6,160 nucleotides of DNA from a virus. Of this stretch, positions 1 to 6,160 are shown piece by piece; the stretch's first letter is position 1; each line of letters begins with the position of its first letter. The stretch covers positions 1 to 6,160 of IMG/VR virus record IMGVR_UViG_3300020026_000001; one strand, written 5' to 3'. The position numbers were made by a program, and so were the translations under genes. Below the pieces are notes generated by a model. The model saw only the letters and a list, made by a program, of their open reading frames with translations, did no database searches and was not told the DNA's origin.

Positions 1-121
1 CTCGGTTATATGTATTGTTCGACGACGACACAGCCGAAGGATAGAACTGACTCTCAAAATAAGCATCGAGGAATTCGAGATTTCCGAATCTTTGCGAGAA
101 AAACCTCGACACGTCGCCGAA
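1..121. repeat. Terminal direct repeat, copy 1; marks the end redundancy of a circular 6039-nt genome
   Basis: Read directly: 1..121 (ctcggttatatgtattgttcgacg...acgtcgccgaa) matches 6040..6160 base for base. The offset is 6039. Confidence 0.95.
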
Positions 122-742
122 CTGAAGAGTATTATACGCGGTACCGGTGCTATTGGGAATCAGATACCAAGTACTGGGCCAAGCGAAAGAATAGAGTCCC
201 CACTGGGAATAACTATAGTAATTGCGGACAATGTCCCAATAAGCAAGATAAGAATCGGCAGTACACCAGCCTAAAGGATACGACAACTGGGCCGTTGTAA
301 GATTAGCAGACACCGGAACATTACTCGAGGTCGGAGTCGGTATAGACCCGGGAATAACACGCAACCAACGAAGCAGCGAATTAGAATACGGATAATTATC
401 AGACGTAAATTCGTACGAACCTGTAGAAGAAGCGGCAATAAAATTCAAACTCAAATCGTTCATATCAAACTTACTACTATTCGTTCGCATCTCCGGATGG
501 TACAGCTGTAAAGGCACCCAAAAACGGTGAAGTCGAATAGTATAGGGATTGAATGTCGGAACAGCAAGCGGGTTACTGCGAATATCAACTCCTTGTTCAA
601 TGGATACACGATCCCGGGCGTTAATAAAATCGATCCGCACCGGATACAAAATACCCGGTGTACACGTAAAGGCCTTACTCTCAGGGACATCATAACGAGA
701 GTAGCCATTAACGGCATGTGAGATAAAAGGTTGTTTTCCCAT
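1..742 (-). CDS. VP1: Major capsid protein VP1 (phiX174 F-like), N-terminal part; continues across the circular junction into 6039..4991
   Basis: The ATG is at 742..740. I checked all 247 minus-strand codons from 742 down to position 2 and found no stop. It translates as MGKQPFISHAVNGYSRYDVPESKAFTCTPGILYPVRIDFINARDRVSIEQGVDIRSNPLAVPTFNPYTIRLHRFWVPLQLYHPEMR...LAYWDIVRNYYSYSQW...FGD, then runs into VSRFFSQ. The frame matches ORF 4991..6151 (6151-6039=112; both 742 and 112 are 1 mod 3). The PTFNPY..RLHRFWVP and YWDIVRNYY blocks resemble conserved Microviridae capsid segments, from memory. The ORF track misses this piece because it runs off the window edge. Confidence 0.9.
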   Translation of the reverse strand, partial: MGKQPFISHAVNGYSRYDVPESKAFTCTPGILYPVRIDFINARDRVSIEQGVDIRSNPLAVPTFNPYTIRLHRFWVPLQLYHPEMRTNSSKFDMNDLSLNFIAASSTGSYEFTSDNYPYSNSLLRWLRVIPGSIPTPTSSNVPVSANLTTAQLSYPLGWCTADSYLAYWDIVRNYYSYSQWGLYSFAWPSTWYLIPNSTGTAYNTLQFGDVSRFFSQRFGNLEFLDAYFESQFYPSAVSSSNNTYNR

Positions 743-745
743 AAA

Positions 746-1816
746 TTAAATGTTTAGTTGAAGTTTATAGTGATCTCTCCAAAACTGAAGAATATTCATA
801 TCCAGAAAAACAGGGGGGTCAAAATCGGGCATCCTGCGAGAAGAAGCAGCGAAGCGCATCATTTGCTTCTGCTCCCACGTATACGACGCTCTACGGGATA
901 CGGCGGAACTGAGATTGAACCGCTTAACACACAAAGACACAACACGCCTAACCAGAGAAGACTTGCTAAAACGTGCATAAGAATCAGCAGCGGTAATCGA
1001 ACGACAAACTTCATCTTCAGGTTTGAGATACTTAAGATAGTATCGAGGAATCGAGTAATTGTAATCGATACGCTTCTCAAAATCAAAATAAGACCACGAC
1101 GAAGTACGAGCAGAAGGGCGAGGCATATAACCGAGAAAATCACCAACGCCAGCAGATACGAATTTTCGCGTATAACGGCGATGTTGGAGGAGGCAAGATA
1201 AAGGGACAGAGTTTCCATCTACAGTAACATATTTATCCGAAATTTCTTCGGGGTTGAATTGAATTTGTTTAGTAACATACTTAACGCAGTAACGAGCACG
1301 CTTATGGGTAGCTTTCGCCAGCCACACAAAACCGAGGTCTCGAACAGCAGAGCGAATCGTATTGTAGAGAACATTCGTGTCAAACAAGAAGCCATGAAAA
1401 TGCAAGCGGGGTTCGTTGCCCGTCTCAGGGTGCGTGCCAAACTCCTGAAAAAAGGCATGCTTGAACGAATGACCGAGTTTGTGACGCAGGCGTTCGTTGA
1501 ATCTCCGAATAAAACAGGACGGATCGATCAAAGCTTGGTCATAATACTTCGGAGCAATCGTTATCGTAATAAAAATAGCCTGCTGAGACTCGGCCTTACA
1601 GCGAGCAAGCTCGCGCTCTAAACGCACGAACCAATCATTGCGCTGACGACGCAGACAGTCTTCGCACCTTCCACAAGGAACCATGAGCCATTGGCGGGCA
1701 ATATCCCAGGGGCGGAGCGCCAAAGCCGACTTCGCAACGTCAGAGCCATCACGACAGGGATTCTTCTTGTCGAAATAGCGACGATTACGTATCCATATGG
1801 GAGACGAACAAGGCAT
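746..1816 (-). CDS. VP4: Rolling-circle replication initiator (Microviridae VP4, phiX174 gpA-like HUH endonuclease), 356 aa
   Basis: Starts with ATG at 1816..1814. Motif I-like FITITIA is at aa 82-88. The HUH motif is RLHFHGFLF, with H139 and H141 at codons 1402..1400 and 1396..1394 (checked). The two-tyrosine motif is YCVKYVTK, with Y176 and Y180 at codons 1291..1289 and 1279..1277 (checked). An upstream Cys cluster reads PCGRCEDCLRRQRNDW. Its stop codon lies 3 nt before the VP1 ATG. Confidence 0.93.
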   Translation of the reverse strand: MPCSSPIWIRNRRYFDKKNPCRDGSDVAKSALALRPWDIARQWLMVPCGRCEDCLRRQRNDWFVRLERELARCKAESQQAIFITITIAPKYYDQALIDPSCFIRRFNERLRHKLGHSFKHAFFQEFGTHPETGNEPRLHFHGFLFDTNVLYNTIRSAVRDLGFVWLAKATHKRARYCVKYVTKQIQFNPEEISDKYVTVDGNSVPLSCLLQHRRYTRKFVSAGVGDFLGYMPRPSARTSSWSYFDFEKRIDYNYSIPRYYLKYLKPEDEVCRSITAADSYARFSKSSLVRRVVSLCVKRFNLSSAVSRRASYTWEQKQMMRFAASSRRMPDFDPPVFLDMNILQFWRDHYKLQLNI

Positions 1817-2016
1817 TACAAGAAACTTCTAAGACAATCAAATCTAATAGCAGGATAATCGAGACGACAGCGAATGAGGTAATCATTAGCGGGCTCTTCG
1901 TTGGAAAACCAGGCGATAACAACTCGCTTCTTGCCTCGATATGCTCCAATAGAAAAACGGTAAGGAATACTGTCAATCACAGGAGAAAAACGGGGGCGAA
2001 AATCAAATATATCCAT
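1816..2016 (-). CDS. Hypothetical 66-aa protein upstream of, and overlapping, Rep
   Basis: Starts with ATG at 2016..2014. Its TAA stop (1818..1816) shares one base with the Rep ATG (TAATG). It is the first ORF after the 243-nt non-coding region. Its +1 frame is open (ORF 1785..1976), as in the confirmed genes. I recognise no motif in it. Confidence 0.5.
   Translation of the reverse strand: MDIFDFRPRFSPVIDSIPYRFSIGAYRGKKRVVIAWFSNEEPANDYLIRCRLDYPAIRFDCLRSFL
1839..1846 (-). promoter_or_regulatory. Possible -7 element (TAGATTTG, fits TAnnTTTG) 23 nt upstream of the Rep ATG
   Basis: Plus-strand CAAATCTA at 1839..1846 is a perfect match to the Bacteroides -7 consensus on the minus strand. No TTTG -33 partner sits at the expected spacing. 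Confidence 0.2.
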
Positions 2017-2259
2017 AATCGTAAAATAATACTTTGCGCTTCGAAAGGCGGTACTTTCGAGCGCGAGAACTACTTCGTTACGCCGGCCGACCGCCTAACG
2101 GCGGGGACGCTACGCGTCTTCGGCCTCCATGGCTCCACTTCGTGATTCTATATACCGGATAAATCCGGTGAGTCTACGGCAAAAACACCCAGGAGAGAAA
2201 AAACTCTCCCGGGGCTTCACAGTCAAAGAACTCTTCCACCAAGAGGGCGGGTTACAATT
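2017..2259 (-). other. Structured, G+C-rich non-coding region (hairpin cluster) between the small-ORF cassette and ORF66/Rep
   Basis: Hairpins read by eye, in plus coordinates. 2036..2064: 11 bp with one bulged T. 2091..2104: ccgcc/ggcgg. 2106..2118: gacgc/gcgtc. 2154..2169: accgga-taaa-tccggt. 2188..2213: 10 bp. 2231..2245: ctctt/aagag. Positions 2036..2120 are about 64% G+C by hand count. No ORF of any length is present. Confidence 0.75.
2180..2214 (-). terminator. Rho-independent terminator after the 2583..2260 ORF
   Basis: The minus-strand RNA reads cccgggagag-uuuuuu-cucuccuggg followed by UGUUUUUG. The stem is 10 bp with a 6-nt loop. Its one non-Watson-Crick pair is G.U on the minus strand but A.C on the plus strand, so the structure is strand-specific. 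It starts about 45 nt past the stop at 2262..2260. Confidence 0.6.
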
Positions 2260-2583
2260 TTAGTTCCTTTTCCTTTCTTCTTTCGGCGCGCTTTCATCGG
2301 AATCGAGATTAAAATCAAACATAAGGACAAGTGTATTGTCAAAAAAATCAACTCGGAAATGAGGTAGGCTACCGCAGGTAGTGACAAGTTCAAAAATTTC
2401 CGAATGATCGACGTAAAGCGAATCGCTAATGAAAGAACTGTTCAGAAAACGCGCGATAGGAGTATCCATAAGAGCACTGAGCGGAAGGGATACAAATTGA
2501 TTATCCTTGAGATAACCTACCTGGGCGAGGTCAATTTTGAGAGCCGGGTTGACGCGGCGAATAACAACGTGAATCTGTTTCAT
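2260..2583 (-). CDS. Hypothetical acidic-tailed protein, 107 aa from ATG 2583 (the track's 131-aa version starts at a TTG at 2655)
   Basis: ATG at 2583..2581 lies 11 nt after the stop of the upstream ORF. Sequence: MKQIHVVIRRVNPALKIDL...FDFNLDSDESAPKEERKRN. The 2655 start is TTG and would overlap the upstream gene by 61 nt. I recognise no family. Confidence 0.6.
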   Translation of the reverse strand: MKQIHVVIRRVNPALKIDLAQVGYLKDNQFVSLPLSALMDTPIARFLNSSFISDSLYVDHSEIFELVTTCGSLPHFRVDFFDNTLVLMFDFNLDSDESAPKEERKRN

Positions 2584-2594
2584 AACAATGTAAT

Positions 2595-2915
2595 TTAAAG
2601 TTTCGATTGAAATTTGAGGTAAAAACACCTCCAAGCGTCGGAATACTTTCTCCAAAAATCATAGCCCTCGGGCGTCGTGTCAAACCAGAAAGCGGTAGAA
2701 ATGAGGTAGGTAGGACCTAAACTCGGGTTGCAAAGAGAGCGCCGAATATGGGCACGCAAACGGTCGCGAAACCCCCCGTAGGGCGAAACGACGACATCGT
2801 AGTTCGTCTTAAAAGCGACGAATATTCCTTGACGAACGAGCCACTCGGTGAAAGCGTAATCGATAACGTCGACAATCAAATCGCCAGCCTTGAAATTTTT
2901 ACTTTCTTTTTTCAT
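2595..2915 (-). CDS. Hypothetical 106-aa, Trp/aromatic-rich protein
   Basis: Starts with ATG at 2915..2913 and stops with TAA at 2597..2595. It is preceded by the promoter-like motif. The C-terminal block reads AFWFDTTPEGYDFWRKYSDAWRCFY. It is not one of the canonical microvirus proteins that I recognise. Confidence 0.65.
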   Translation of the reverse strand: MKKESKNFKAGDLIVDVIDYAFTEWLVRQGIFVAFKTNYDVVVSPYGGFRDRLRAHIRRSLCNPSLGPTYLISTAFWFDTTPEGYDFWRKYSDAWRCFYLKFQSKL

Positions 2916-2941
2916 GGTATTGTGGTTATTGGTTTACAGCA

Positions 2942-2973
2942 CAAAGATACAACCAAAAAGAATAAACGGCAAA
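2942..2973 (-). promoter_or_regulatory. Bacteroides-type promoter candidate: TTTG (-33), 20-nt spacer, TATCTTTG (-7)
   Basis: The minus strand reads TTTGccgtttattctttttggttgTATCTTTG (plus CAAAGATA 2942..2949 and CAAA 2970..2973). This exactly fits the TTTG / TAnnTTTG consensus of Bacteroides primary-sigma promoters. It sits 27 nt upstream of ATG 2915, in the 81-nt gap after VP2. It is the only one of five TAnnTTTG matches I found on this strand that has a correctly spaced -33 element. Confidence 0.45.
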
Positions 2974-2996
2974 GTTCAAAAAGTCGGGGAACTTGT

Positions 2997-4259
2997 TCAA
3001 TTCCTCCTAAAATAGCTGCGGCGAGTGTATGTAGCACCAATTTGATCTCCGGAAGGGCCGTAAACATCGCGCATCTCATCATAGCCAGCAGGAGCAGAAG
3101 CGCCTTTGGTAAGCGCTACGCCGCTAATAGCAAGAGCACCGGCAAGAGCGGTGCGGGCCATCGAATAACCAAAAGCATTCTTCTCTGATCGATTAGAGAA
3201 CCATTGAGCGGAAAGGCCTTGCGACGCATTGGCGGCGGCCATACTCAAAAGATGTTCGTGTATCTGACGGCCGGTTAATTTAACAGTTTTACCAGTAGGC
3301 TTGCCTGATTCGGTGACCTGGGGGACTTCAATTTCGGCTTCCCAGTTGACGCGAAACCACTCACGAAGATCGGACAAACGAACTTTGGCTATATTGAACT
3401 CAGCTTTCGCGAGGTCGCCTGTAGCGGCAGAACTGTAGGCGGCAGCGTAATCGCGAGCAATTTGTGCGGCGTAAATTTGATCAAAATACTTCGAATTGAA
3501 TTCCTTAATCTGAACGGCTTCCTCGACATGCTTACTATATTGGGCAACAAAATCTTGAAATTTATAAGTAGCCATCAAATCTGCATATTCAGCGTCGGCC
3601 ATATGAATATTAGCAAGAGCGCGATTAAGATCAGCAAGAGCAGCAGCGTTATTGACGTTGTGCGTACGAATCTGCTTATCCAACTCGTCGATGTCCTTAC
3701 GCCATTCAACAGTATGTGTATTTCCACGAAGAAGATCAGCCTCGGCGTTGTCACGATTAGAAGCAGCATCGTTACGATCAACCGTAGATTTTGCAACCAT
3801 ATTCTGTGCAATAGCAGTAGGATCGGCAGCGGCAAAACCACCAGGGGCAACGGGAGCACCACCGGAAGGGCCAGAGGCGGAAGACATAGAGGCAGAGCCG
3901 CCCGACATGGTGGCATTGACGCCGACACCCGAAGAGCCTAAAACGGCCGCGGGCGTTACACCAGCCTTCAAATAGCGGTCGAAAACCTTCGAAGGGTCAT
4001 TATATGCATTCTCGTAATCAAACTGTTTCTGCCAATTAGCATAAGAAAGTTCAGACTGCTTTTGCATCTGCTCTAAGGCGTACTGCTGTTGAAGCTTCAT
4101 TTGTTTTTGCTGATAACGCCATTGGCGACGGGCGTTCATACCGCCAAAAAGCTGGCCGAGAGCGCCAGTAATAAGGCCGGTAGTACCGGTAGATGCAGCA
4201 GACTGACCAAGAGCCCGTCCAAAAGATGAGGAGGCGGCGGCAGCAACAGGAATAGCCAT
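2997..4259 (-). CDS. VP2: Minor capsid / DNA pilot protein (Microviridae VP2, phiX174 H-like), 420 aa
   Basis: Starts with ATG at 4259..4257. The N-terminus is Gly/Ala-rich (AAAASSSFGRALGQSAASTGTTGLITGALGQLFGG). A Gln-rich, coiled-coil-like stretch follows (QQKQMKLQQQYALEQMQKQ). Next comes NAYNDPSKVFDRYLKAGVTPAAVLG, which resembles the conserved ..AG.NP.. block of VP2 proteins from memory. A Gly/Ser/Ala low-complexity linker spans aa 108-146. The rest is a long alpha-helical-looking region. This composition and the gene's size are typical of pilot proteins. Confidence 0.8.
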   Translation of the reverse strand: MAIPVAAAASSSFGRALGQSAASTGTTGLITGALGQLFGGMNARRQWRYQQKQMKLQQQYALEQMQKQSELSYANWQKQFDYENAYNDPSKVFDRYLKAGVTPAAVLGSSGVGVNATMSGGSASMSSASGPSGGAPVAPGGFAAADPTAIAQNMVAKSTVDRNDAASNRDNAEADLLRGNTHTVEWRKDIDELDKQIRTHNVNNAAALADLNRALANIHMADAEYADLMATYKFQDFVAQYSKHVEEAVQIKEFNSKYFDQIYAAQIARDYAAAYSSAATGDLAKAEFNIAKVRLSDLREWFRVNWEAEIEVPQVTESGKPTGKTVKLTGRQIHEHLLSMAAANASQGLSAQWFSNRSEKNAFGYSMARTALAGALAISGVALTKGASAPAGYDEMRDVYGPSGDQIGATYTRRSYFRRN

Positions 4260-4260
4260 A

Positions 4261-4452
4261 CTAAATACGAGTTAAATTGTTAGAACGAATAATGTAATCA
4301 ACGCGGACAGTATCAATATGAACGCCGCTACGCTGCACTCTTGCTTGAGCCGAACAAGACGAAAGGAAAAAAGCAGCCAACGCAGCAATAATAGATGAAA
4401 CGAGCGTCCAAAAAGCCTTTGATTTATAAAACGGTTGTTTGACGTCTGACAT
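4261..4452 (-). CDS. Small predicted lipoprotein (63 aa; signal peptide plus lipobox LSSC), translationally coupled to VP2
   Basis: Sequence: MSDVKQPFYKSK-AFWTLVSSIIAALAAFFL-SSC. It has a basic n-region, an 18-residue hydrophobic core and the lipobox L30-S31-S32-C33 (Cys codon 4356..4354, checked). That leaves a 31-residue mature peptide. Its TAG stop (4263..4261) lies 1 nt before the VP2 ATG. Confidence 0.6.
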   Translation of the reverse strand: MSDVKQPFYKSKAFWTLVSSIIAALAAFFLSSCSAQARVQRSGVHIDTVRVDYIIRSNNLTRI

Positions 4453-4681
4453 GATATTAAAAATTTAAGGGAAGCTACGGTGCCGCACCCCCACTTCGTT
4501 CGGGGCGGTTCTCCGAACCGCGAAATGCGTCACCTCGCCACAACGGTGTAAACAATTGAATAAAGAACGATAGAAAAATGCGCGACCTCTCCCGCAGTCG
4601 CTACCAATAACCTTCAACAATTCACGAACTCTTGCAGAAGGGGTTCGCGCACGTAGCATATATCGTCAAGTAAAGAGGGTA
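4453..4681 (-). other. Second structured, G+C-rich region (hairpin cluster), nominally intergenic
   Basis: Hairpins in plus coordinates. 4505..4521: gcggttc-tcc-gaaccgc, 7 bp. 4623..4649: 7 bp, with one pair that is G.U on the minus strand and A.C on the plus strand. 4582..4601: gcgac/gtcgc, followed on the minus strand by GCAUUUUU. 4489..4505: cccc/gggg alternative. Positions 4471..4550 are about 64% G+C by hand count, against about 32% for 4261..4320. Confidence 0.7.
4465..4659 (-). CDS. Doubtful arginine-rich 64-aa ORF inside the structured region (possible J/VP8-like DNA-binding protein, or non-coding)
   Basis: It has an ATG at 4659..4657 and 12 Arg in 64 residues (MLRARTPSARVRELLKV...AVRRTAPNEVGVRHRSFP). 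However, it exactly spans the hairpin cluster, where high G+C alone would give CGN-rich frames. It also contains a weak terminator-like hairpin. Confidence 0.2.
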   Translation of the reverse strand: MLRARTPSARVRELLKVIGSDCGRGRAFFYRSLFNCLHRCGEVTHFAVRRTAPNEVGVRHRSFP

Positions 4682-4978
4682 CTATTTTTCTTCAAGTTTA
4701 GGGGGTTTCGCAGCGGCCTTCGATCTATCTATCTCTGAATCAATGAGTTCCTGGCCAACCTCGAGACCGTCGAACTTATCCATACGAGAGAATGAGTTAG
4801 GGTCGAAATCAATCTCGGGGTCGAACCTTTCACCCTTATCGAAATCAGACGGGGACGCCTCGACATCTGGGCGACCAGGAAGGACATCAACAGAACCAGA
4901 ACCGTTAAGAACGGAAAGAATACGCTGACCACGAGAAATATAGGTAGGAGCGTCCTCAAGTAACCAATTAAGTGCCAT
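4682..4978 (-). CDS. Hypothetical acidic 98-aa protein immediately downstream of VP1 (possible scaffolding-type protein)
   Basis: ATG at 4978..4976 lies 12 nt after the VP1 stop. It has about 21 Asp/Glu against 12 Lys/Arg (DFDKGERFDPEIDFDPNSFSRMDKFDGLEVGQELIDSEIDR) and a Lys/Pro tail (AAAKPPKLEEK). I recognise no family. Confidence 0.6.
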   Translation of the reverse strand: MALNWLLEDAPTYISRGQRILSVLNGSGSVDVLPGRPDVEASPSDFDKGERFDPEIDFDPNSFSRMDKFDGLEVGQELIDSEIDRSKAAAKPPKLEEK

Positions 4979-4990
4979 AAAACCAGTGTA

Positions 4991-6160
4991 TTAACGATTA
5001 GACAAACGGGTTGCAAATGTTTTATTAACCAGGTTCTTCTTCTGAACAGAATACGAAAGATTGACAAAGAAGTTATCTTCCAGCTTGGAGGAAAACGGGG
5101 AGTTTACCTGATCAATATCCACGAACAAAAGGGAATAATACTTATTATAGCTCGCCGACAGAACACGCTGTTGAACCCAATAAGAATAAAGAGGGATACT
5201 GTTATAGGCTTTTTGGAATCGAGACAGCTGGCCAAGAACCTCGTCAAACGAGGACCGAAACTCATTGAAACACGGTTCGTAAGCCACAGCTTCTGAGGCC
5301 GATGTGGTTCCGAATCCGAATTGGAATCCGGGAACATCCTGGTACCCAATATCATTATAGATCGGATTAAAATAATCGGCACCAGTATAATGGAGATAGT
5401 CAGGGTAAACACCTGCCCAATAGTAGACGGGGCGAATGCTCAGCATATCAATCATATAGCCAGGCTCGCGGAAGTAATAAGACTGTCGGCGACCAAGACG
5501 ATCATTGAAGGCGATAGCACCACCTTGCTGTCCCAAGGGACCATTTAAGCTCGAACCGGAAAAATTGTTTCCTCCAGCCTGATTCATCACAACCTGAACG
5601 TTAACAGTCTGAGATGCGCTAAACAACAATTTGGGCCGATCGACGTGTTCGATTTTCGAAGCAAAAAAGGTTTCCAACCAGTCACTGTAACGAGAACCTC
5701 CAGCGCCAAGCAAATCCTTGTATTCTTGAAGACGCGAAGCAATAGCCAGCTGCGGTACGGTTGAGACGCCGGACATGGAGACGCCTTCGGAGCTACCAAC
5801 AGGAAGCAATCGACTATAACGATCGGGATTCGAAGGTATAACGGCCATCGGATGGGCGACAAGGAACGATCCAAGCGTAGTAAGAGTCGTAGCGGCAGCG
5901 CCAGTAGCGAATTGACTTGCAGGACCCGCGGTAGTCAGCGTAGTATTTCCGGGATAGATGGTAGAGACGGGGTAGCCATCCTTAGATGCGGTAATCGTAG
6001 CGCCAAGGTCTGAAAGCAATATCTGAGAAAAAAGATTTCCTCGGTTATATGTATTGTTCGACGACGACACAGCCGAAGGATAGAACTGACTCTCAAAATA
6101 AGCATCGAGGAATTCGAGATTTCCGAATCTTTGCGAGAAAAACCTCGACACGTCGCCGAA
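4991..6160 (-). CDS. VP1: Major capsid protein VP1, C-terminal part (5' end lies across the junction; full gene is 742..1 joined to 6039..4991, 596 aa)
   Basis: This is the longest ORF in the window. It is open to the window edge and stops with TAA at 4993..4991. The 'M' the track places at 6151 is really an internal GTG (Val) codon. The joined length of 596 aa fits large-type microvirus capsid proteins. Confidence 0.92.
   Translation of the reverse strand, partial: FGDVSRFFSQRFGNLEFLDAYFESQFYPSAVSSSNNTYNRGNLFSQILLSDLGATITASKDGYPVSTIYPGNTTLTTAGPASQFATGAAATTLTTLGSFLVAHPMAVIPSNPDRYSRLLPVGSSEGVSMSGVSTVPQLAIASRLQEYKDLLGAGGSRYSDWLETFFASKIEHVDRPKLLFSASQTVNVQVVMNQAGGNNFSGSSLNGPLGQQGGAIAFNDRLGRRQSYYFREPGYMIDMLSIRPVYYWAGVYPDYLHYTGADYFNPIYNDIGYQDVPGFQFGFGTTSASEAVAYEPCFNEFRSSFDEVLGQLSRFQKAYNSIPLYSYWVQQRVLSASYNKYYSLLFVDIDQVNSPFSSKLEDNFFVNLSYSVQKKNLVNKTFATRLSNR
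6040..6160. repeat. Terminal direct repeat, copy 2 (identical to 1..121)
   Basis: Same comparison as copy 1. The repeat runs to the last base of the window. Confidence 0.95.

Follow-up and report, generated by a model that had tools for sequence, protein, structure and literature searches.

The window analyzed here is a stretch of 6,160 nucleotides (nt), namely positions 1 to 6,160 of the IMG/VR virus record IMGVR_UViG_3300020026_000001, and the element in question is the interval at positions 2180 to 2973, which lies between the gene of the pilot protein VP2 and the block of the replication gene Rep/VP4. A preliminary description had presented this interval as a self-contained promoter, two small open reading frames (ORFs) and a terminator, inserted between VP2 and the Rep block in the manner of a moron or accessory cassette. 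Our analysis makes it probable that the interval forms a discrete unit of expression, conserved in a lineage of gut microviruses and working by the mechanism proposed below, and not an inserted cassette. The main new result is an overprinted gene resembling J/VP8, here named orf24, which follows the two ORFs (ORF-A and ORF-B) and partly overlaps the second. The features of the unit, in coding order and with lengths in amino acids (aa) and isoelectric points (pI), are the following.

2973..2970, minus strand: -33 box TTTG of the putative promoter, an exact match; the column is conserved in 63 distinct gaps after VP2
2949..2942, minus strand: -7 box TATCTTTG (TAnnTTTG), an exact match
2937..2924, minus strand: leader block GTAAACCAATAACC, 14 nt, downstream of the -7 box and ahead of the ATG; no other part of the gap is as conserved
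2915..2595, minus strand: ORF-A, a basic (pI 9.3) four-helix orphan protein of 106 aa
2583..2260, minus strand: ORF-B, an acidic (pI 5.2) alpha/beta orphan protein of 107 aa with a disordered tail
2316..2347, minus strand: secondary promoter-like site (9/10 positions) within ORF-B, upstream of the orf24 ATG; speculative
2297..2223, minus strand: orf24, 24 aa (MKARRKKKGKGTKIVTRPLGGRVL), in the +1 frame relative to ORF-B and within the interval of the preliminary description
2179..2213, minus strand: hairpin (2213..2188) and T-tract (2185..2181), beginning 9 nt past the orf24 stop

Given that the terminal 121 nt are identical at both ends, the window represents a circular microvirus genome of 6,039 nt, and its minus strand carries every credible gene (10 genes). 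The set of relatives consists of 80 close ones, fetched via Rep, which adjoins the unit and lies outside it, and of GenBank genomes. The GenBank relatives, about 69 in number, all come from animal gut or faecal samples, and none was cultured. Locus counts are given out of 86, the typed genomes number 81, and the complete circular genomes number 62 (369,850 nt). Individual relatives are referred to by L numbers.

A small gene overprinted on the end of ORF-B

The approximately 35 nt past the ORF-B stop are highly conserved, and the variation they do present has a periodicity of 3 nt. This stretch is the second half of orf24, which overlaps the final 35 nt of ORF-B before its stop, has its own stop 37 nt downstream, and ends 9 nt before the hairpin. 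Considering 76 distinct nucleotide versions, the minor-allele sums at codon positions 1, 2 and 3 are 26, 13 and 191 beyond the ORF-B stop, and 28, 32 and 208 inside the overlap with ORF-B. The constraint is therefore chiefly that of the orf24 frame, and this accounts for the conservation of the KEERKR-like sequence as well as for the disordered tail of ORF-B. The start codon (ATG) of orf24 is invariant, and the ORF-B codon that overlaps it is only of the NAT types (D/N/H).

The gene is present in 82 of the 86 loci, where its tail TRPLGG[RK][VI]L is near-invariant, and it is kept in relatives with 41-61% VP1 identity, in the forms MKARRKKTKSNGSRRVVRPLLGKVL, MSRKRRPRRGGRRVVSRPLLGPVK and MSRKNRRRKKSGRRVVHRPLLGPVM. 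Its relatives were found by a direct translation scan combined with a degenerate DNA pattern. When the C-terminus was back-translated, it matched 112 of 2.9 million viral-contig stretches, and the approximately 80 listed are all on contigs of 4.2-6.3 kb. These observations establish orf24 as a real, constrained gene, core to the lineage. No annotation of orf24 was present in the GenBank relatives examined. At L195:4436-4843 (PQ007003.1), an ORF of 135 aa is annotated whose N-terminus, MKKKKSDVKKTS…, reads the J-like gene region in an alternative frame, and it is probably a mis-annotation that arose from the overlooked small gene.

The orf24 product contains ten lysines or arginines and no aspartate or glutamate, with a pI of 12. 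Proteins J and VP8 are defined as very small, rich in arginine and lysine, and free of acidic residues (PMC3091885, PMC11281519), and the 24 aa of orf24 lie within or just below the 25-44 aa range of J (phiX174, G4, alpha3) and VP8/ORF8. The likeness extends to a hydrophobic end after GG-x-x and to the position as the last gene before the Rep region; in Chp2 and phiMH2K, too, no gene separates the J-like one, which follows VP3 or VP5, from Rep. As far as the sequence pattern goes, the C-terminus ...GGRVL compares with ...GGIRF in Chp2 ORF8, ...GGIRL in phiMH2K and ...GGQQF in phiX174 J, the shared terminal motif class being GGxx[L/F/Y]. According to the SpV4 structure paper, structural conservation in J/VP8 is limited to the last four residues, which lie buried in a hydrophobic pocket of the capsid (PMC11281519). 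For orf24 there is no statistically detectable homology to J or VP8, and 35 nt of it are shared, in another frame, with the preceding gene. Bacteroidetes proviruses were reported to have no J/VP8 or C/VP5 homologs, with a VP3-like scaffold placed after VP1 (PMC3091885). Judging by its size, charge, C-terminus and position, orf24 is most likely a DNA-packaging protein of the J/VP8 type.

Putative promoter and leader after VP2

VP2 ends with its stop at 2999..2997 and ORF-A opens with an ATG at 2915, which leaves the 81-nt gap that had been described, and the perfect promoter match reported there proved to be the sole exact TTTG-N17-23-TAnnTTTG match on both strands of the window. The pattern is the sigma-ABfr consensus of Bacteroidota, with TTTG at -33 and TAnnTTTG at -7 (PMC7366714). 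The spacer between the boxes has 20 nt in the window, and 19 or 20 nt in relatives. In a single genome such a match is not significant, since 0.19 are expected and 35 of 200 shuffles contain at least one (a chance of about 0.18). Across the 62 complete genomes, however, 38 of the 40 exact coding-strand matches to TTTG-N19-21-TAnnTTTG fall within 100 nt past the VP2 stop, and there are zero exact matches on the opposite strand (369,850 nt). The remaining genomes match 9/10 positions at this spot in 18 cases and 8/10 in 6, which gives at least 9/10 in 56 of the 62, against scores of mostly 6-7 in random windows of 90 nt. When 63 distinct gaps were aligned, the TTTG at -33 was conserved, the TA and TTTG at -7 were near-invariant, and the "nn" and the spacer were variable, which is how the columns of a working sigma-ABfr promoter should behave. 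L003 and L052 keep the -7 box although ORF-A is missing from them.

Each genome has a single copy of the leader block GTAAACCAATAACC, always on the coding strand, and 63 of the 86 loci match it exactly. Bacteroidota leaders have no Shine-Dalgarno sequence, adenines at set positions favour translation, and the 5' untranslated region (5'UTR) of B. thetaiotaomicron has a mode of 23 nt (PMC7366714). The predicted 5'UTR of the unit is about 20 nt, and adenines at -3, -6, -11, -12, -14 and -15 from the ORF-A ATG occupy six of the seven preferred positions, the best context among the 10 genes, none of which is preceded by a Shine-Dalgarno-like motif. The block would thus hold the predicted transcription start and an A-rich leader without Shine-Dalgarno sequence. 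Its conservation exceeds that of the gap around it and of the coding sequence next to it, and such invariance is more than the published leader rules call for. A reading of the block as the nick site of a phiX-like Rep was set aside, as it depended on a resemblance of 6 nt (AATAAC).

In comparison with Bacteroides sigma-ABfr promoters, the boxes, the 20-nt spacer and the A-rich leader are the same. The differences are that here they are on a phage, and that the invariant 14-nt block at the start of the leader goes beyond the published rules. The promoter-leader pair argues for a Bacteroidota host, as does, indirectly, the lack of Shine-Dalgarno-like motifs ahead of all 10 genes.

Two further promoter-like sites were seen inside the unit. 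One of them, near consensus (9/10), is at 2684..2653 on the minus strand, over the codons FDTTPEGYDFW of the tryptophan (Trp) motif of ORF-A and about 70 nt before ORF-B. It is a positional peak in 15 of the 62 genomes, and it could be an internal ORF-B promoter or a by-product of conserved codons. The other, at 2316..2347, is a positional peak in 26 of the 62 genomes, with a mild synonymous-site bias at its -7 box and a -33 box that is not kept. Given this weak synonymous-site support, an internal promoter for orf24 within ORF-B was left as speculative.

Hairpin and structured region

The intrinsic terminator noted at 2180..2214 was recovered as a stem of 10 pairs (7 G-C) with a 6-nt loop, followed by TGTTTTTG, and it is the strongest terminator-like site in the window. 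The hairpin of the window has a folding energy of -25 kcal/mol (z = -5.4). A helix of at least 8 bp forms in 83 of 83 distinct sequences, and since 52 different 5' arms keep it, many of the changes are compensatory. This conservation was assessed by folding each sequence separately, because the alignment consensus was unusable, variable loop lengths having misplaced the 3' arm. The T-tract (at least five T in the next 9 nt) is present in at least 47 of the 83, and some types, such as L013 and L001, have no clean tract.

Both promoter and hairpin are conserved and keep their position, and they look like functional signals that would bracket a discrete unit. Being the only strong terminator in a circular genome transcribed from one strand, the hairpin probably ends all transcription that reaches it, upstream transcripts included. 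The earlier claim that the unit has its own start and stop signals is hence sustained at the sequence level, but the stop signal is probably not exclusive to the unit.

Beyond the hairpin, and outside the unit, the following region extends up to the next genes.

2017..2222, minus strand: structured non-coding region of 206 nt, ahead of orf66/Rep

The RNA fold of 2262..2017 has an energy of -100.9 kcal/mol (z = -5.28) and presents several GC-rich hairpins, and a search of the whole window against Rfam gave no match. The region is a candidate for single-stranded DNA (ssDNA) replication or priming. In L001, L003, L023, L026, L034, L045, L065 and L069, the terminator-like hairpin, approximately 10-90 nt past the orf24 stop, is composite, with two GC-rich mini-hairpins that have loops of GAA/GAAG type, ACAACCGAAGGTTGT and CCGCGAAGCGG, inserted in its loop. 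Mini-hairpins of a similar kind are present elsewhere between genes and hint at small hairpin modules that are mobile or expandable.

ORF-B, a core gene

The two ORFs of 106 aa and 107 aa, spaced by 11 nt, are where the preliminary description had placed them, and its statement that neither matches a canonical microvirus protein is borne out by Pfam, PHROGs, hhalign and Foldseek, all of which were negative. Pfam scans of 29-30 family members of ORF-A and ORF-B gave no hit at E values up to 5. No homologs of either ORF were found outside microvirus-sized contigs among the members listed.

ORF-B was found in 82 of the 86 loci. The misses correspond to incomplete contigs and to L006, whose copy was picked up instead by a hidden Markov model and by its fold. 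The gene is therefore present wherever the region can be examined, and it is core to the lineage. Its family comprises 423 clusters at 90% identity, and 17 at 50%, among 1.84 billion proteins. The 17 clusters come from an exhaustive profile search with ORF-B, whose match of 669 aa, P0204, was rejected as spurious because it is a low-complexity, mucin-like repeat protein. The ratio of nonsynonymous to synonymous substitution rates (dN/dS) of ORF-B is 0.27, which indicates purifying selection.

The AlphaFold2 model of ORF-B (mean predicted local distance difference test score, pLDDT, 87) is an alpha/beta fold with a disordered tail. When this fold was searched with Foldseek against BFVD, the only confident matches were uncharacterised Microviridae proteins with 14-53% identity, so that the fold recurs at identities as low as 14-22%. 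Against the PDB, no microvirus chain was among the matches listed. The best PDB match was GFRP, a pentamer-forming protein, with E = 0.13 and a template modelling (TM) score of 0.31-0.38, which is not significant and was not used.

ORF-A, an optional and fast-evolving gene

The AlphaFold2 model of ORF-A is all-helical (pLDDT 89). Its Trp-rich block, which had been singled out as a probable fold signature, is indeed the conserved core signature of the family, with F76, G84, F87, W88 and W95 invariant. The family comprises approximately 209 clusters, and those listed are on contigs of at most about 6 kb, with one exception of about 12 kb. A deep profile search with ORF-A brought more family members and no new context. 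Its PHROG matches are weak and correspond to entries of unknown function over the Trp motif only, and in Foldseek against the PDB the best match had E = 6.5, with no microvirus chain among the matches listed.

ORF-A is missing from 4 of the 81 typed genomes (L003, L004, L006 and L052), in all of which ORF-B comes directly after the same promoter. L052 is a deletion derivative, since roughly the first 25 nt of ORF-A remain in it, the ATG having become ATT. The gene is also absent from the distant relatives L194-L196 (41-61% VP1 identity). In two of the relatives at this distance, an unrelated ORF of 124-127 aa was seen following the ORF-B-like gene. ORF-A is the fastest-evolving gene of the genome, with a median identity of 50% where that of Rep is 88%, and recombination breakpoints flank it on both sides (for example in the mosaics L017, L010, L070 and L080). 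Its dN/dS of 0.23 indicates purifying selection, and positive selection was rejected at the gene-wide level by the same value. ORF-A is thus a real gene that is dispensable and accessory-like.

Proposed mechanism and comparison with phiX174

Under the proposed mechanism, a sigma-ABfr-type promoter located 24-55 nt past the VP2 stop would start transcription at about 2936-2933, giving an A-rich leader of about 20 nt without Shine-Dalgarno sequence, which should be close to ideal for translation in Bacteroidota. The mRNA would encode ORF-A, ORF-B and orf24. The last of these would act like J of phiX174 or VP8 of gokushoviruses, its basic N-terminus neutralising and guiding the ssDNA during packaging, and its C-terminal ...GGRVL anchoring in a hydrophobic pocket of the capsid protein. 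The GC-rich hairpin and its T-tract, 9 nt past orf24, would terminate the transcript. Such a high-expression unit would supply the packaging protein together with the core factor ORF-B and the optional ORF-A.

The closest parallel is the phiX174 arrangement pD - D (E overprinted) - J - TJ, which likewise consists of an internal promoter, one or more morphogenesis genes, overprinting, a tiny basic last cistron and a terminator, and which is also part of a circular ssDNA genome transcribed from one strand. In phiX174, expression of D, E and J is 2-3 times higher than that of B, K and C, and a terminator TJ is present (PMC11527146). The D/E/J unit is the most highly expressed of that phage. Because of this parallel, ORF-B may be a high-copy morphogenesis or DNA-maturation factor made alongside the packaging protein, in which case ORF-A would be an optional partner in the unit.

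Four differences from phiX174 were identified. The promoter is of the Bacteroidota sigma-ABfr type and not of the sigma-70 type; ORF-A and ORF-B have no sequence or fold similarity to D or E; the J-like gene is itself partly overprinted; and the unit comes after the pilot gene and before Rep, whereas in phiX174 it precedes the capsid gene.

Weighing the alternatives

Several results weigh against the proposed explanation. ORF-B evolves approximately three times faster than Rep (dN/dS of 0.27 versus 0.085). No method revealed a likeness of ORF-A or ORF-B to VP3, VP5, B, C or D, so the case for a morphogenetic role of ORF-B is confined to co-expression, synteny and conservation. When orf24 was compared with J/VP8 profiles, there was no Pfam or PHROG hit and hhalign gave less than 1%, yet the control comparison of gokushovirus J with phiX174 J fails likewise, so this comparison speaks neither for nor against the assignment. 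The initiation context of orf24 is weak, with adenines at three of the seven preferred positions. The T-tract is less conserved than the hairpin, and hence the hairpin may have an additional role. No consensus sigma-ABfr promoter is conserved before orf66/Rep in the 62 genomes, so transcripts may read through past the hairpin. Finally, the search for prophages or hosts in 185,579 cellular genomes, with profiles of ORF-B and VP1, found none; its VP1 part used two N-terminal peptide patterns only, and its reach is limited accordingly.

The view taken in the preliminary description, that the whole block of promoter, ORFs and terminator is an inserted moron-like cassette for takeover, anti-defence or superinfection control that virions do not need, appears very improbable. 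With the morons of tailed phages the unit does share its own promoter and terminator, its core-gene flanks, and the polymorphism and modular exchange of ORF-A. Its proteins are orphans, the block of VP2, ORF-A and ORF-B is the most variable part of the genome, and the interval between VP2 and VP4 is a known insertion site, in which Alpavirinae acquired accessory peptidases (PMC3394797). However, two of the three genes are core: ORF-B and orf24 are in all complete regions, including those of relatives with 41-61% VP1 identity, and one of the two, the J/VP8-like packaging gene, is conserved even more strongly than ORF-B. The composition is not foreign, with a GC content of 43-46% in the unit, inside the genome range of 40-53%, and no homologs were found outside contigs of microvirus size, among the family members listed. 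Gokushoviruses hold the core genes VP3, VP5 and J-like in the same interval, and the promoter here, unlike that of a moron, serves whichever gene comes first. Hence, the accessory label is retained for ORF-A, which varies in presence, evolves fast and is exchanged, and is withdrawn for ORF-B and orf24. The term "inserted" does not apply, since the layout is ancestral to the lineage. As evidence against an accessory nature, the preliminary description had named conservation in every relative and matches to VP3/VP5-type profiles; the former was found for ORF-B and not for ORF-A, and the latter for neither.

This leaves room for a narrower explanation, in which ORF-A alone is accessory: it would interact with the host (in anti-defence, takeover or exclusion), be dispensable and quick to diverge, and occupy the first and best-expressed place in a core unit. 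Such an explanation is compatible with a conserved core unit and would give ORF-A a specific role, and we regard it as doubtful, though conceivable. It accords with the natural deletants L052, L003, L004 and L006 and the absence from L194-L196, with the lowest median identity of all genes (50%) and the breakpoints on both sides, and with the best leader context of all genes, the basic charge and the orphan fold. On the other hand, a dN/dS of 0.23 comes without gene-wide positive selection, and ORF-A is kept in 77 of the 81 typed genomes, being nearly fixed in the close clade. It belongs to no known anti-defence or regulatory family according to Pfam, PHROGs and a PDB fold search, the PADLOC library not having been searched, and a non-essential assembly helper would be equally possible. 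The combined proposal, that ORF-A is a true accessory arms-race gene and that orf24, in the same unit, is the missing J/VP8 of Bacteroidota-type gut microviruses, is rather unlikely.

A doubtful but conceivable explanation concerns ORF-B, which might be a diverged functional equivalent of the VP3 scaffold (B in phiX174) or of a C/VP5-type switch from replication to packaging. Synteny speaks for it, as the order is VP2-VP3-ORF8(J-like)-Rep in Chp2, VP2-VP3-VP5-J-like-Rep in phiMH2K, and VP2-(ORF-A)-ORF-B-orf24-...-Rep here, and ORF-B, with 107 aa and a pI of 5.2, is near VP5 (84 aa, pI 4.7-5.6). Krupovic and Forterre found no C/VP5 in Bacteroidetes proviruses and a VP3-like protein after VP1 (PMC3091885), which leaves a VP5-like role open. 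Against it, the Pfam scans were negative across the family and hhalign remained below 1% for both VP3 and VP5. With the VP3 internal scaffold (PF09675; about 150 aa, acidic), it gave at most 0.2% for ORF-A and ORF-B, whose sizes are 106 and 107 aa; with the VP5/ORF5 profile, built from two sequences and hence of low sensitivity, it gave at most 0.3% for ORF-A, ORF-B, orf98 and orf66. BFVD returns only unnamed microvirus proteins and the PDB nothing significant, the fold is compact, unlike the extended and largely disordered scaffolds, and the acidic orf98 after VP1 is a better analogue of VP3.

It is also unlikely, though less so than the combined proposal above, that the hairpin and the structured region serve mainly in ssDNA replication, for instance as an origin or priming site of the complementary strand, and not, or not solely, in termination; the unit would then not be closed, and transcription from the promoter after VP2 would continue into orf66, Rep and VP1. 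Since the viral strand of ssDNA phages has the polarity of mRNA, the packaged DNA forms the same hairpins, which is in favour of this explanation. So are the better conservation of the hairpin than of the T-tract, the three more GC-rich hairpins that follow (region z = -5.3), the lack of a conserved consensus promoter before orf66/Rep, and the leakiness of phiX174 terminators, with an efficiency of 40-60% (PMC11527146). Nevertheless, the form is that of a classical terminator, with a GC-rich stem of 10 bp, a 6-nt loop and a T5 run, and the distant relative L004 has a 7-bp hairpin followed by TTTTTG after its J-like gene. Furthermore, terminator and replication roles are not mutually exclusive.

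Other genes of the genome

The gene order is VP1, orf98, orf64, orf63, VP2, ORF-A, ORF-B, the 206-nt non-coding region, orf66 and Rep. The genes flanking the unit or otherwise referred to above are as follows.

742..1, continuing at 6039..4991, minus strand: VP1, 596 aa, recognized by Pfam and PHROGs
4682-4978, minus strand: orf98, the next gene past VP1; hydrophilic, with an acidic pI of 4.4 and a net charge of -9
4259..2997, minus strand: VP2, pilot protein, recognized by Pfam and PHROGs; stop codon 2999..2997
2016..1816, minus strand: orf66, 66 aa, basic; conserved in 85 of the 86 loci
1816..746, minus strand: Rep/VP4, recognized by Pfam and PHROGs

The orf98 product is 72-94% conserved among close IMG/VR relatives and resembles VP3 of Chp2 (pI 4.8, net charge -9), although hhalign sees no similarity between orf98 and VP3. 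It fits the published proposal of an internal scaffold located after VP1 in Bacteroidetes-type microviruses (PMC3091885). As for orf66, it has no known family and no similarity to VP5. Its stop overlaps the Rep start (TAATG), which suggests translational coupling of the two genes. Inside orf66, and about 23 nt upstream of the start codon of Rep, a promoter-like site (8/10) was observed whose -7 box is TAGATTTG.

The orf64/orf63 region (4261-4659, minus strand; L001:3218-3520) presents two layouts. In 43 relatives there is one fused ORF of 100 aa, made of the orf64 N-terminus and orf63, and in 33 genomes, including the window, orf63 stands alone with 63 aa. In the window, the conserved 33 N-terminal codons of orf64 are followed by about 110 nt that are GC-rich and hairpin-forming. 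In the orf63 product, a lipobox-like L-[AST]-S-C comes after a conserved hydrophobic segment, so the protein may be a lipoprotein, with a possible part in lysis or exclusion.

Mosaic genomes were observed among the relatives (L007-L086). VP1 comes in two types, with approximately 67-70% or 88-95% identity to the window; the type is unrelated to Rep identity (85-93%), and VP2 identity ranges from 41% to 95%. The correlations between genes weaken with distance, which indicates frequent modular recombination.

Implications

Gut microviruses of this kind are abundant and uncultured, and routine annotation covers only VP1, VP2 and VP4. Standard gene calling misses orf24, and one record places a 135-aa ORF over the J-like gene. 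The largest microvirus survey excluded overprinted genes on purpose (PMC9239249). As a candidate for the missing packaging protein, the strongly constrained orf24 would fill that gap for the lineage, and the promoter-leader pair would provide a compact natural Bacteroidota expression signal on a phage. Splitting the optional, fast and modular ORF-A from the core pair of ORF-B and orf24 yields three testable hypotheses and guards against labelling the whole unit a moron. If ORF-A were indeed arms-race cargo, next to an overprinted J/VP8, this would mean that even minimal phages do carry such cargo, and the unit would offer clean genetic handles.

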